Origin: Gammaproteobacteria bacterium
GTDB lineage: Bacteria > Pseudomonadota > Gammaproteobacteria > Ga0077554 > Ga007554
Direction of reading: 5' to 3'
DNA length: 64,000 nucleotides
Assembly (NCBI GenBank): GCA_033717875.1
Contig: JADDKJ010000002.1
Location: forward strand, 2,820-66,819
The notes under the pieces were generated by a model. That model saw nothing but the letters and a program-made list of their open reading frames with translations. It searched no databases and was not told the DNA's origin. A program made the position numbers and the translations under genes. This document shows positions 58,800 through 64,000 of the stretch, piece after piece (position 1 is the first letter of the stretch; every line of letters begins with the position of its first letter).

Positions 58800-59081
58800 T
58801 TATGCCGCTGACTCAAGCGGAACATCCCAGCCGGGGAACAGAAGAACAGCCGGATGGCATTTCAGGGCACGAGCGAGTACTTTGGCGCGCTCCACCCCAA
58901 GGTTGACGCGACCATTTTCAATGGCTGAAATGGTAGCCTGCGGAATACCGGTAAGCTCCGACAATTGATTTTGGCTCAGTTCTTGAAGCTCGCGAATAAT
59001 GCGTACAGATTCACCGACAGAAACTTCAATGCGTTTTTTAGCAGGGCGAAACTCTTTCATGCTACGGCCTCCGATAATCAT
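58800..59081 (-). CDS. HTH (XRE-family) antitoxin of a RelE/HigB-2-type TA pair
   Basis: 93 aa. ELSQNQLSELTGIPQATISAIENGRVNLGVERAKVLARAL helix-turn-helix. Overlaps by 20 nt the upstream toxin gene. Confidence 0.8.
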   Translation of the reverse strand: MIIGGRSMKEFRPAKKRIEVSVGESVRIIRELQELSQNQLSELTGIPQATISAIENGRVNLGVERAKVLARALKCHPAVLLFPGWDVPLESAA

Positions 59082-59346
59082 GCGGTGTAACCTGAATCAC
59101 CTGAACCAACAAAACGTCAGCGACAACCCGATAGATAACCCGCCATTGCAGCCCTAAACGAGAAGAGCGATAGCCCTTCCACTCACCTGATAAGGCCTCA
59201 TCGTGGAACCCTTTGATTGCGCGCAGCCCAGGCGGGCCGGAAATTGCGGCAACATCTTTCCACTTCTCATACCGCTTTAGCACCTCCTTCGGCACGCTAG
59301 CGGAGAGCTGTTTATCGACACGGCGGTGTTCTTCAATTCTCCACAT
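59062..59346 (-). CDS. RelE/ParE-superfamily toxin (HigB-2-like mRNA interferase)
   Basis: 94 aa. MWRIEEHRRVDKQL...GLRAIKGFHDEALSGEWKGYRSSRLGLQWRVIYRVVADVLLVQVIQVTPHDY matches RelE-like fold conservation. Toxin-first arrangement. Confidence 0.8.
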   Translation of the reverse strand: MWRIEEHRRVDKQLSASVPKEVLKRYEKWKDVAAISGPPGLRAIKGFHDEALSGEWKGYRSSRLGLQWRVIYRVVADVLLVQVIQVTPHDYRRP

Positions 59347-59540
59347 ACCAAATTATGCTTATATTATTTTTGATATGTCAAGGGGCGTGACTCTTAAGCG
59401 GTATGATGTCTTGTTTAACCGGCAGCACGTAGGGCGAAAAACCTGCTGGCATTGTGCCAGATGAGACAACAACCATTCGGCGCAATACGGCTATCGCCTA
59501 TTGCACCCTACGCGGGCTGCAGATACTTGTTGGATTGCGT

Positions 59541-60290
59541 CTAAACATATACGTTTCGGTCGTCTCGAGAATAAAGAACCGGAACTTGCTTTAAGCCAGA
59601 TCTTTCTAACAGCTGTTTCGCGGCTGCCGCGCACTCTTCTGTTGCCTTTGGCGACATAACCACGGCTTCGATAAGTACGTCCAATTGCACCGGCAACCAG
59701 ACGTTTTCTGGTGGGCTATCAGCGATATTGGGCCAGTGTACAATTCGTATTTCGTTTTCGAGGCTAAAGTGAAGATCTTTCCAGAAAAAGATACTCGGTG
59801 TTCCAAAATAGTCAATCCACTGTCCGCCCGCATGATCAAAATAGTTGACCAAAGAAATATCCAGGGGCCACTTTTCAATCGCTTCATCACACGCTCTTTC
59901 GAGCGCCGCTACAGTCGACTTAACCGCGACACCCGGTGACTTTCGGACATAGCCCTTCCACATTAGGTCGAAGTCAGTATCGCCCACACACCAGCAATTG
60001 ATATAGGTACGGAGCCGATCCCGCGCTCTCGCTTCGCGCTCATTTAGAACCTCATCGGAGTCAGTAACCTTTTCAATCCACTGTTCCATATCCACCAATT
60101 GACGGCGCGAGTATGTGCCTTCAAAGCGGTCTTCAAGCCGATCTGCCCTACATAGATACAATGATCGTGTATTCAAAAGAGATTCGAACTTATACCAGTC
60201 CATGTACCGCCATACGCTAGTCGACCGATCTTCGGGCAAGCAACACTTCGAATGCACGTCTCGCTTCAGGTTTATGTACTGGTCGCTCAT
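59541..60290 (-). CDS. Hypothetical protein, possibly DUF2971-like; low-GC, likely horizontally acquired
   Basis: 249 aa. GC content visibly lower (about 50%) than flanks. N-terminal WRYMDWYKFESLLNTRSLYLCRADRLEDRFEG resembles the DUF2971 pattern (Y.S...L...L....L..S....FND..E). Family assignment is tentative. Confidence 0.45.
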   Translation of the reverse strand: MSDQYINLKRDVHSKCCLPEDRSTSVWRYMDWYKFESLLNTRSLYLCRADRLEDRFEGTYSRRQLVDMEQWIEKVTDSDEVLNEREARARDRLRTYINCWCVGDTDFDLMWKGYVRKSPGVAVKSTVAALERACDEAIEKWPLDISLVNYFDHAGGQWIDYFGTPSIFFWKDLHFSLENEIRIVHWPNIADSPPENVWLPVQLDVLIEAVVMSPKATEECAAAAKQLLERSGLKQVPVLYSRDDRNVYV

Positions 60291-60536
60291 GTTAAGAAAT
60301 CCAAACGTGAATCAACCTCACTTTCGACGCAAAAAAAGGCGTCAATAGTGAAATCTAATCCGCATTTCTTTTGCTATATTTATGAATCTTCTACAGTGAA
60401 AAAATAAAAATCATCACTATCAAAAGAAGTTTTACTGCATGGCGTCACGATCCATCAAGCACCGTTTGCTGCGGGACCACCTTCTCCCGCTGGGAAAAGA
60501 AAACAGGCGGACATAAGATAAAGAGCGCCCAGCACA

Positions 60537-61937: not shown

Positions 61938-62243
61938 TCACGCTGCACGTGACAGGGGATGAACTTCCTTTTCCAGCCTGTCCTCAAGCGCCTCCAACGC
62001 CACTTCCATGTCATAGTGGGATTGGAGGTTGAGCCAAAACTGCGCCTCCATGTTGAAATATCGCCCAAGCCGCAATGCGGTATCGGCGGTGATCGCACGG
62101 CGGCCATGCACAATTTCATTGATGCGCCGGGGGGTGACTCCAATATCTTTTGCGAGCCGATACTGGCTGATCCCCAGAGGCTCCAGAAATTCCGCAAGGA
62201 GAATTTCGCCAGGATGAATGGGAGAAAAATCACGCTTTGCCAT
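61938..62243 (-). CDS. higA: HigA antitoxin (XRE HTH)
   Basis: 101 aa. IHPGEILLAEFLEPLGISQYRLAKDIGVTPRRINEIVHGRRAITADTALRLGRYFNMEAQFWLNLQSHYDME. Downstream of higB with 9-nt gap. Confidence 0.85.
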   Translation of the reverse strand: MAKRDFSPIHPGEILLAEFLEPLGISQYRLAKDIGVTPRRINEIVHGRRAITADTALRLGRYFNMEAQFWLNLQSHYDMEVALEALEDRLEKEVHPLSRAA

Positions 62244-62252
62244 AATGACCTC

Positions 62253-62534
62253 TCAATGGTAGTCGGCAATTTCGACGTCGTAAGCATCGCTGCCTTGCCA
62301 TACGAAACAGATCCGCCACTGCTTGTTGATGCGTATGCTGTATTGACCTTTTCTGTCGCCACGAAGCGCCTCCAGGTGATTCGACGGTGGAACACGGAGC
62401 GTTTCAAGAAGACCTGCGGCATTCAATATCTTAAGCTTCATGCTTGCTGCGCGCTGGATTGTTTGCGGCAACTTTGTCGAAAACCGGCCGTGGAAGAGCT
62501 TTTCCGTCTCTCGACATTTGAAGGATTTGATCAT
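62253..62534 (-). CDS. higB: HigB toxin (plasmid-maintenance killer protein, RelE/ParE superfamily)
   Basis: 93 aa. MIKSFKCRETEKLFHG...LEALRGDRKGQYSIRINKQWRICFVWQGSDAYDVEIADYH, canonical HigB. Confidence 0.85.
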   Translation of the reverse strand: MIKSFKCRETEKLFHGRFSTKLPQTIQRAASMKLKILNAAGLLETLRVPPSNHLEALRGDRKGQYSIRINKQWRICFVWQGSDAYDVEIADYH

Positions 62535-62603
62535 GCTTTTTTGATACTATCCTTCCAGGATAATATCGTCAAGAGATATTAGACGGGTGCAGAGCGCCAC
62601 CTC

Positions 62604-62632
62604 TTGACATTTAAATGATAATGATTATCATT
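62604..62632 (+). promoter_or_regulatory. Sigma70-like promoter (TTGACA-16-TATCAT) overlapped by a near-perfect Fur box
   Basis: TTGACA at 62604-62609. 19-bp palindrome AATGATAATGATTATCATT (62614-62632) matches the Fur consensus GATAATGATAATCATTATC and covers the -10 TATCAT (62626-62631). Followed by GGAGG RBS and ATG at 62665. Confidence 0.65.
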
Positions 62633-62664
62633 TACAGATATCTGTTCGTGCAAGGAGGTGCCGT

Positions 62665-62943
62665 ATGCGATACATCATTGACGCCTGGCTGGAAGATGGA
62701 GATCCTCGCTTGAGCATCCGCGACGCGGACACGGGGGCGGTACGGATGCAGTGGGACTATGAGAGGCCGCGCGATGCGGTGGCGCGTGAGCGTGCGGCCA
62801 GCAAGGCGCTCCAGGGTTTGTTCAGGAAGCTGATGCTGCTGTCGTGCGCCGACAGGATCAGTCTACCGGCGCGAAGCGCCTCCCCCGGCTTCGGCGCGGA
62901 ATGCCTTGATTGCGGAGAGTGTGTCGCAGAGAAGGAGCGCTAA
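62665..62943 (+). CDS. Hypothetical small protein (92 aa) with C-terminal CxxCxxC, putatively Fur/iron-regulated
   Basis: Strong RBS CAAGGAGGTGCCGT-ATG. MRYIIDAWLEDGDPRLSIRDADTGAVRMQWDYERPRDAVARERAASKALQGLFRKLMLLSCADRISLPARSASPGFGAECLDCGECVAEKER. No family recognised. Confidence 0.55.
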   Translation: MRYIIDAWLEDGDPRLSIRDADTGAVRMQWDYERPRDAVARERAASKALQGLFRKLMLLSCADRISLPARSASPGFGAECLDCGECVAEKER

Positions 62944-63054
62944 GACTTCGAACAAGTTCGAGCAACACACCGTTCTTGACCATCACCCGCCAGACAAGGA
63001 CAATCAACGGGAAAATTTCGAGGGCCGTTGATCGTGTTTGAAGTTGAACCAGAA

Positions 63055-64000
63055 ATGAAGAAACGCAGCATTTGTGTATTGGGGGCCAGCGGCTTTGTCG
63101 GCCGTCACCTGGTCAATCAGTTGGTCAAGGAAGGCTGCCGGCTGAGGCTGATCGTGCGGCACCCGGAGCGGCACCGTGACTTGACGGTGTGGCCGGGTGT
63201 GGAAGTGGTGGATGCCGATGTTCACGATCCCGAGGCGCTCAAACGCGCCTTTGCGGGCTGCGACACCGTCATCAATCTGATCGGCATCCTCAACGAGAAC
63301 CGCAAGACCACCTTCCAGGCCACGCATGTCGAACTGCCGCGAAAGGTGGTGCAAGCCTGCGTTGCCCAGGGTGTGACGCGCCTGCTGCACATGAGCGCGC
63401 TCAATGCCGATGCCGCGAAAGGCCCCAGCCGCTATCTGCGCAGCAAGGGCGAAGGCGAGGGTATTGTCCACGCCGCGTCGGCGCAGGGACTGCGTGTAAC
63501 CAGTTTCCGTCCCTCCGTGATCTTCGGCCCCGGCGACCATTTCTTCAATCGCTTCGCGACGCTGCTGAAACTTGCACCCATCCTGCCGCTGGCCTGCCCC
63601 GAGGCGCGCTTCGCCCCGGTGTATGTCGGCGATGTCGTTCACGCCTTTGTCACCGCGCTGCGCGACAAGGCCACGGTCGGTGAACGCTACGATCTGTGCG
63701 GTCCGCGCGGCTATACGCTCAAACAACTGGTCGAATATGCCGCCCATGTGCTGAGCATCGACCGTGTCATTATCGGCCTGGGTGATTCGCTGTCGCGGCT
63801 GATGGCAGGCGTAATGCAATTCGCCCCCGGCAAACCGCTCAGCCCCGACAATTACCTGTCGATGCGGGTGGACAGCGAGTGCAAGGGAGAATTCCCCGCC
63901 GTGTTCGGCATCCAGCCGACGGCCATCGAGGCGGTGGTTCCGTTTTATCTGAACAAGCGTGATCAGCGCGCCCGCTATTATGACTTCCGGCGGGTAGCGC
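63055..64000 (+). CDS. NAD(P)H-binding NmrA/NDUFA9-like (complex I 39-kDa subunit family) oxidoreductase, 3'-partial
   Basis: Open frame from ATG 63055 to window end (not in ORF track because no stop). MKKRSICVLGASGFVGRHLVNQLVKEGCRLRLIVRHPE... Rossmann GASGFVG, ...RPSVIFGPGDHFFNRFATLLKLAPILPLACPEARFAPVYVGDVVHAF, typical of bacterial NDUFA9-like SDR proteins. The opposite-strand ORF 63004..63819 is a GC shadow. Confidence 0.7.
   Translation, partial: MKKRSICVLGASGFVGRHLVNQLVKEGCRLRLIVRHPERHRDLTVWPGVEVVDADVHDPEALKRAFAGCDTVINLIGILNENRKTTFQATHVELPRKVVQACVAQGVTRLLHMSALNADAAKGPSRYLRSKGEGEGIVHAASAQGLRVTSFRPSVIFGPGDHFFNRFATLLKLAPILPLACPEARFAPVYVGDVVHAFVTALRDKATVGERYDLCGPRGYTLKQLVEYAAHVLSIDRVIIGLGDSLSRLMAGVMQFAPGKPLSPDNYLSMRVDSECKGEFPAVFGIQPTAIEAVVPFYLNKRDQRARYYDFRRVA

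Follow-up and report, generated by a model that had tools for sequence, protein, structure and literature searches.

The locus

The 64,000 nt analyzed here, referred to throughout as the window, are part of contig JADDKJ010000002.1, from the metagenome-assembled genome (MAG) of a gammaproteobacterium. Near the 3′ end of the window, an open reading frame (ORF) encoding 92 amino acids lies behind a promoter-like sequence that is overlapped by a Fur box with a perfect 7-1-7 core. The encoded protein is a distant relative of PA4570 of Pseudomonas aeruginosa. Four features, read from the sequence, make up the locus:

62604-62631, plus strand: sigma-70-type promoter, TTGACA-16 nt-TATCAT, an 11/12 match (−35 hexamer TTGACA at 62604-62609, a 16-nt spacer, −10 hexamer TATCAT at 62626-62631)
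62614-62632, no strand: putative Fur box, AATGATAAT-G-ATTATCATT, spanning the promoter spacer and the entire −10 hexamer
62652-62659, plus strand: Shine-Dalgarno sequence AAGGAGGT, lying 5-6 nt 5′ of the ATG within a leader that is short and unstructured
62665-62943, plus strand: gene for a 92-amino-acid small protein of the PA4570 superfamily, of a long subtype with four cysteines (C61, C80, C83 and C86) and a shortened C-terminus

Taken together, these features are best read as a promoter under Fur repression from which a small cytoplasmic member of the PA4570 superfamily is expressed, a reading to which we assign a probability of roughly 0.7.

Promoter and operator

In a promoter scan, TTGACA-16-TATCAT is the top promoter-like site between positions 62200 and 63200. 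The 19-mer AATGATAATGATTATCATT at 62614-62632 overlaps it. The core of this box, TGATAATGATTATCA (62616-62630), has 0 mismatches in 14 positions to the 7-1-7 Fur motif TGATAATNATTATCA, and it is the sole 7-1-7 Fur site of the 64-kb window even with 2 mismatches permitted, where shuffled sequences lead one to expect 0.04. Compared with the 19-bp E. coli-type consensus GATAATGATAATCATTATC, the box differs at 2 positions when read on one strand and at 3 when read on the other; hits were seen in 0 of 100 shuffles. A first-pass annotation of this DNA had described a 19-bp Fur operator lying over this promoter, and both elements are indeed present. Within the TGATAAT/ATTATCA 15-mer, the second position is G and the second-to-last is C, which we take to be the signature of Fur-type rather than PerR-type sites among the Fur-family operators of Bacillus.

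Independent evidence for the layout comes from the Rfam model of PrrF (RF00444), which aligns to 62604-62644 through its 5′ end only, scoring 23 bits against a gathering threshold of 90 (E = 0.19). That end of the model consists of the prrF promoter and Fur box (UUGAC..AAAUGAUAAUuaUUAUuAUuu), so the alignment shows that this region has the layout of a classic Fur-repressed Pseudomonas promoter. Indeed, prrF-type promoters have the same TTGAC-N-AAATGATAAT-N-ATTAT-N-ATT arrangement, in which the box covers both spacer and −10 hexamer. The likeness ends with the promoter: prrF encodes a small RNA (sRNA), whereas the product of the window locus is a protein. A PrrF sRNA at 62604-62644 was considered and rejected, because the match is to the promoter and Fur box portion of the model. 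Since RF00444 contains these elements, it gives sub-threshold matches on unrelated Fur-boxed promoters, a trap for annotators.

What would the operator do? Because it covers both the spacer and the −10 hexamer, Fe(II)-Fur should sit on the promoter and exclude RNA polymerase when iron is sufficient. Under iron limitation, the promoter would open, and the resulting transcript would have a ~25-nt leader and a strong ribosome-binding site. The palindrome over the spacer and the −10 hexamer is present in the sequence, and knowledge of the family makes repression of the promoter the expected outcome.

A conserved coding sequence

The ORF has a strong ribosome-binding site, as the first-pass annotation had recognized: GGAGG at 62654-62658 lies 6 nt ahead of the ATG at 62665, and the leader and start region are less stably folded than shuffled sequences (z = +1.83). 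The stop codon is TAA at 62941-62943, and the product ends CLDCGECVAEKER. This product, with an isoelectric point of 5.4 and no signal peptide, looks cytoplasmic. The ORF had been called unannotatable and easily missed in annotation, a description that falls because the identical protein is already deposited from the source MAG (“Gammaproteobacteria bacterium”) as the hypothetical protein MDX1250861.1.

There are six close homologs at 60%-86% identity. More distant relatives require an exhaustive search: word-indexed protein searches are insensitive for this PA4570-like family and returned 7 and 17 matches, and scans of genome contigs and metagenome contigs returned 1 and 2 loci, respectively. 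When 1.84 billion cluster representatives were searched exhaustively with a profile hidden Markov model (HMM), 175 relatives came up at E ≤ 1e-3, including 50 at E ≤ 1e-10; the 175 are clusters at 50% identity in the collections searched.

Divergence in the nearest relatives has the pattern of a coding sequence under constraint. Comparison of the window with the three DNA relatives nearest to it gives a synonymous divergence (dS) of 0.23-0.50 and a ratio of nonsynonymous to synonymous divergence (dN/dS) of 0.13-0.24. For the three genomes that carry the shortened form of the gene, dS is 0.23-0.36 and dN/dS is again 0.13-0.24, and the reading frame, the start codon, the Shine-Dalgarno sequence and all four cysteines are kept. 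These values bear on the idea that the ORF is either a leader without coding function or a gene remnant in decay, with a Fur box that serves the downstream gene or is a relic of a lost heme-uptake operon. The C-terminus is shorter than in most relatives, and the hemP cluster found at the related locus L004 is missing, as such an idea would have it. However, a leader or remnant of this kind is very unlikely given the constraint on the shortened form and a Fur box in the window that is perfect rather than decayed. By these comparisons, the 92-amino-acid ORF is a true conserved gene, under purifying selection despite its shortening.

Relationship to PA4570

A Pfam scan of the ORF gave no family at E ≤ 1, and a sequence profile search of the PDB gave nothing significant, returning only short CxxCxxC look-alikes (E = 0.24-7). 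The protein had accordingly been described as having no recognizable family, a claim that does not survive comparison with NCBIfam. Residues 1-34 match positions 1-34 of the 69 in model NF050178 (“PA4570 family protein”) with E = 3.2e-9 and 36.9 bits. The family of the window protein does likewise: of 149 representatives, 136 match the model, with a best E value of 1.5e-23. The curated equivalog cut-off of NF050178 is 100 bits. Because the window protein falls below this cut-off while most of its relatives match the model, these scores place it in the PA4570 superfamily as a distant member rather than as a PA4570 equivalog. The link to PA4570 is made through the NCBIfam model rather than through the PA4570 sequence of strain PAO1.

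In P. aeruginosa, a Fur box lies 5′ of pa4570 and is conserved in other pseudomonads, and the gene is fully iron-repressed (bioRxiv 10.64898/2026.09.03.749296; PMC4950607; PMC13277308), as shown by quantitative PCR and northern blot (bioRxiv 10.64898/2026.09.03.749296). The protein itself has been detected in iron starvation (bioRxiv 10.64898/2026.09.03.749296), and its expression clusters with that of sodM, hemO and hasAp (PMC10473638). The 3′ untranslated region (UTR) of pa4570 is processed to yield the sRNA RsmW (bioRxiv 10.64898/2026.09.03.749296; PMC4950607; PMC13277308).

PA4570 and the window protein share a homologous N-terminal beta-meander and an LFxxLxLL(S/T)C helix. Both are small and acidic to neutral, without a signal peptide, with a Fur-boxed promoter and with no assigned function. 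They differ in architecture: PA4570 is 74 amino acids long (PMC4950607), the model has 69 positions, and there is no C-terminal CxxCxxC, whereas the window protein has 92 amino acids and carries this motif. Hence, the window protein departs from the PA4570-type architecture of ~70 amino acids without a C-terminal Cys motif.

The Fur box across the family

Is the Fur box a property of the window or of the family? Thirteen independent lineages (the window itself and loci L001, L004, L007, L015, L016, L018, L020, L021, L022, L023, L009 and L011), with 30%-80% protein identity to the window protein, were compared over the 200 bp that precede either the family gene or its operon's first gene. The best match to AATGATAATnATTATCATT has 0-4 mismatches in 18 positions in all 13 lineages. 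Among 153,698 background 19-mers of the same loci, 0 come within 4 mismatches of the palindrome. In related loci, a TTGAC-type −35 sequence usually lies a few bases 5′ of the palindrome. In L014, a further close relative, the 3′ half of the box is retained at the very start of the contig.

Both the ORF (175 representatives) and its box are thus conserved in relatives, and the putative Fur box is a hallmark of the whole family, not a peculiarity of Pseudomonas. The earlier prediction of a small protein induced by iron starvation gains support from the palindrome in 13 of 13 lineages and from the iron repression of its homolog pa4570. In one short-form lineage (L009 3759-4001 and L010 535-777), an 80-amino-acid ORF without a Pfam match lies 5′ of the family gene and overlaps it by 1 base. 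A Fur-like box lies 5′ of this ORF, which suggests a two-gene Fur-controlled operon.

Protein anatomy and the four-cysteine subtype

Two sequence elements are common to all members of the family. The first is M-x-Y-x-I-D-A-W-L-E-x-G-x-P-x-L-x-I-x-D-A-x-(T/S)-G-x-V-R-L-x-W. The second, L-x-x-L-F-x-x-L-x-L-L-(S/T)-C, follows a variable linker. An AlphaFold2 model based on 45 family sequences has a mean predicted local distance difference test (pLDDT) score of 82, with strands at residues 3-10, 13-20 and 26-31, a helix at 38-71 and a low-confidence tail from ~72. The part shared with PA4570 is predicted to span residues 1-71, with a beta-meander of three strands packing against the long helix.

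The long forms (45 of the 149 representatives, including the window protein) continue beyond this domain with S-x-x-F-G-x-E-C-(L/I/V)-x-C-x-x-C. In the window protein, the motif is C80-x2-C83-x2-C86, within a C-terminal FG-x-E-C-L-x-C-x-x-C arm, and Cys61 lies on the helix. Because the CxxCxxC pattern served to pick out the long forms, C80, C83 and C86 are invariant partly by construction. This does not apply to the fixed aligned position of the motif, to its conserved FG-x-E flank or to the enriched Cys61, which occurs in 43 of 45 long forms vs 67 of 104 short forms (Fisher p = 3e-5). The four thiolates C61, C80, C83 and C86 would most likely make up a metal or Fe-S site, as judged from their conservation.

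In many long forms, there is an additional C-terminal motif, N-(V/I)-(V/I)-x-L. Its fuller form, N-(V/I)-(V/I)-x-L-(R/x)-(D/E), occurs 10-25 residues past the Cys motif in P0004, P0005, P0008, P0009, P0012, P0015, P0030, P0032, P0039 and others; the window protein and its two closest relatives lack it. This motif may be a docking peptide.

Genomic neighborhoods of relatives

The short forms sampled stand alone, as does PA4570, whereas long forms tend to adjoin hemP, heme-receptor genes or bfr. Typically, a long-form gene opens or lies within a hemP and TonB-receptor heme-uptake cluster under a Fur box, or else it directly precedes a bacterioferritin gene. The neighborhoods of the long forms sampled are as follows:

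L004/L005 (80% identity): hemP immediately 3′, then genes for a TonB-dependent receptor, HmuY and HemS
L007 (45% identity): hemP, a DUF2325 gene and a TonB-dependent receptor gene 3′
L015: a hemP-like ORF 3′, judged by eye without a Pfam scan
L018/L019: hemP 3′, with overlapping stop and start codons
L016: within a cluster of hemP, two TonB-dependent receptor genes, X, and genes for HmuY, ExbB and CobN
L023 and L020: just 5′ of a ferritin or bacterioferritin gene
L001, L021 and L022: stand-alone

The 418-amino-acid DUF2325 protein of L007 (5626-6882), between hemP and the TonB-dependent receptor gene, is an uncharacterized component of heme-uptake-type clusters.

The association with hemP raises the question of whether the long form is itself a HemP. 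HemP/HmuP/ChuP proteins resemble the long forms in being small, iron-regulated and encoded at the head of heme-uptake operons, and the long-form gene is the immediate 5′ neighbor of hemP in at least four lineages, with the stop/start overlap in L018. HemP is nevertheless not homologous to the window protein, and the window gene has no hemP beside it. HemP identity (PF10636) was rejected for the window protein, which has no Pfam match and an hhalign probability of 0.5% against the HemP of L004.

The association with bacterioferritin raises a second question. Bfd is a small, Fur-repressed protein with four cysteines. The long form could be a Bfd-like or ferredoxin-like Fe-S carrier, supplying electrons for the release of iron from bacterioferritin or heme in iron starvation. 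Cys61 together with C-L-x-C-x-x-C resembles ferredoxin cluster motifs, the only PDB profile matches are CxxCxxC segments of the PsaC type (weak, with E = 0.8-7 for PsaC), and in L023 and L020 the gene lies directly 5′ of bfr or a ferritin gene, a likeness to Bfd that extends to the small size, the Fur box and the four cysteines. However, even at E ≤ 1 there is no Pfam BFD-like or Fer4 match, and the PDB matches reach only E = 0.24-7. The window protein shows no sequence match to the BFD-like [2Fe-2S] domain, its cysteine spacing (C-x18-C-x2-C-x2-C) differs from that of Bfd, and the predicted fold is neither that of Bfd nor ferredoxin-like. Of the 4Fe-4S ferredoxin motif CxxCxxCxxxCP, the CxxCxxC part is present with no CP after it. 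The short forms, moreover, share the Fur control and core fold without the motif. An electron-carrying role of this kind is therefore doubtful.

The downstream gene and a probable local rearrangement

Two further features follow the 92-amino-acid gene:

62944-63033, plus strand: spacer to the next gene, with no terminator-like site and a weak promoter-like sequence, TTGACC-17-GACAAT (62976-63004), a 9/12 match
63034-64000, plus strand: gene for an NDUFA9-like extended short-chain dehydrogenase/reductase (SDR), running off the window; a neighbor only

The SDR matches the Pfam families Epimerase, NAD_binding_10 and NmrA, and its best solved relatives in the PDB are NDUFA9 chains of complex I (E ~3e-29), in agreement with the first-pass annotation. 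The start given there, ATG at 63055, fares less well: this codon is ATT in L014, where the gene is called from a GTG, and GAGGG lies 9 nt 5′ of GTG 63034 in the window. The SDR gene probably starts at GTG 63034.

Comparison with L004, the nearest hemP-linked relative, shows how the SDR gene may have come to lie here. The two loci share the synteny of an APH-kinase gene, an aldehyde dehydrogenase gene and the ORF, and their alignment breaks just past codon 88 of the ORF, after the Cys motif. Beyond this point, the window, L006 and L014 have a tail ending ..AEKER (..AERER in L006), a stop codon, the 90-nt spacer and the SDR gene, whereas L004 has the C-terminal tail and hemP. Because the break follows codon 88 and the SDR gene is present only in the window, L006 and L014, the SDR neighborhood is clade-specific. 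The likeliest cause is a rearrangement in which the gene would have lost both its C-terminal tail and the adjoining hemP cluster and been fused to the SDR gene.

The small protein had also been proposed to be a metal-binding or redox partner. Metal binding is plausible, given the conservation of Cys61 and CxxCxxC in the long subtype; partnership with the SDR is a different matter. If the protein served the neighboring NDUFA9-like oxidoreductase as a redox or metal partner, with both encoded in one Fur-controlled operon, this would fit the shared strand, the gap of ~90 nt without a terminator-like site, the retention of the arrangement in L006 and L014, and four cysteines that could hold a redox center. 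Such a partnership is unlikely. The adjacency is limited to one shallow clade and begins at a synteny breakpoint inside the ORF, at its 3′ end. In none of the other lineages sampled does this SDR gene lie beside the family gene, and the spacer has its own promoter-like sequence, conserved with the rest of its 90 nt in L006 and L014. Read-through from the 92-amino-acid gene into the SDR gene is possible, and beyond this nothing functional ties the two together.

The same spacer bears on whether the locus resembles pa4570 in its RNA. PA4570 is 16%-17% identical to RsmA and RsmN and has RsmW in its 3′ UTR (PMC4950607), so the window protein could be an RsmA/CsrA-like RNA-binding regulator, perhaps with an sRNA cut from its own 3′ UTR in the manner of RsmW; the lack of a terminator 3′ of the ORF would suit such processing. 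This is very unlikely for the protein: the hhalign probability is 0.3%, and fold searches returned no CsrA-like structure. On the same grounds, the RsmA-likeness proposed for PA4570 (PMC4950607) finds no support here. As for the RNA, no Rsm-type Rfam family matched the spacer at E ≤ 10, with the presence of RsmW in Rfam not verified, and the fold of the spacer is not significant (z = −1.84), with two GGA motifs only. With neither an Rfam match nor a significant fold in its favor, an RsmW-like or other 3′-spacer RNA was set aside, and the locus appears to lack the downstream RsmW-like sRNA of pa4570.

Other features near the gene

An intact toxin-antitoxin pair, higB (93 amino acids) and higA (101 amino acids), lies at 61938-62534 on the minus strand, divergent from the Fur-regulated gene. 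A 6-3-6 palindrome, TATCCT-TCC-AGGATA, at 62548-62562 covers a promoter-like site of higBA and is probably a HigA operator. In L004, the higBA module is reduced to a deletion remnant (about 2650-2900). Further upstream, the stretch from ~58850 to 60530 has a GC content of 0.43-0.53, vs ~0.62-0.68 in the flanking genes, and contains a 249-amino-acid ORF on the minus strand (59541-60290) without a Pfam match. This stretch separates the APH-family kinase and aldehyde dehydrogenase genes, which abut in L004, and is probably a small insertion or island.

Functional implications

What might the protein do? The anatomy and the neighborhoods of relatives allow a low-confidence proposal. The C-terminal four-cysteine arm would bind a metal or an Fe-S cluster, and the protein would act as a metal-status-dependent accessory or regulatory factor of the iron-starvation response, in a role ancestrally coupled to HemP-dependent heme acquisition and, in some lineages, to bacterioferritin. 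In its most specific form, the proposal is that the long forms are Fur-controlled metal or Fe-S small proteins that work with HemP (with Bfr in some lineages), sensing iron or heme and tuning heme uptake or iron release. This specific form is tentative, and the odds are against it.

Several observations weigh against the interpretation or parts of it. First, Fur binding and iron-dependent expression at the window locus are what we infer from sequence. Second, L006, whose protein is 84% identical, has no Fur box in the 116 bp available before the contig end. Positions 1-116 of L006 (MAG contig SBBG01000199.1) are unrelated sequence in the Fur-box position up to the contig end, either a true promoter replacement or an assembly artifact. 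Third, the Cys region is modeled with low confidence (pLDDT ~60-70), and the ORF matched no metal-site family in the Pfam scan or the PDB profile search. Fourth, about two thirds of the family, including PA4570, have no CxxCxxC, so the core function cannot depend on this motif. Fifth, a hemP or bfr neighborhood is found in 7 of the 11 long-form lineages sampled, a small and non-random sample, and there is none at the window itself.

The regulatory logic and the superfamily are known already. The long four-cysteine subtype, its linkage to hemP, heme receptors and bfr, and the family-wide Fur box beyond Pseudomonas appear to be undescribed in the literature searched. PA4570 has featured in Pseudomonas expression studies of iron starvation, infection and biofilms since at least 2015, without an assigned protein function. 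The family to which it belongs is broad (~175 clusters at 50% identity), and about a third of it carries the conserved four-cysteine signature and tends to adjoin hemP, heme-receptor or bacterioferritin genes. For annotation, this means that the locus need no longer be a bare hypothetical and can carry the label of a PA4570-like small protein of the Fur regulon. Should the long forms indeed prove to be four-cysteine partners of HemP or Bfr, the family, whose “hypothetical” genes rank with the most strongly iron-regulated ones in pseudomonads, would gain its first functional handle.
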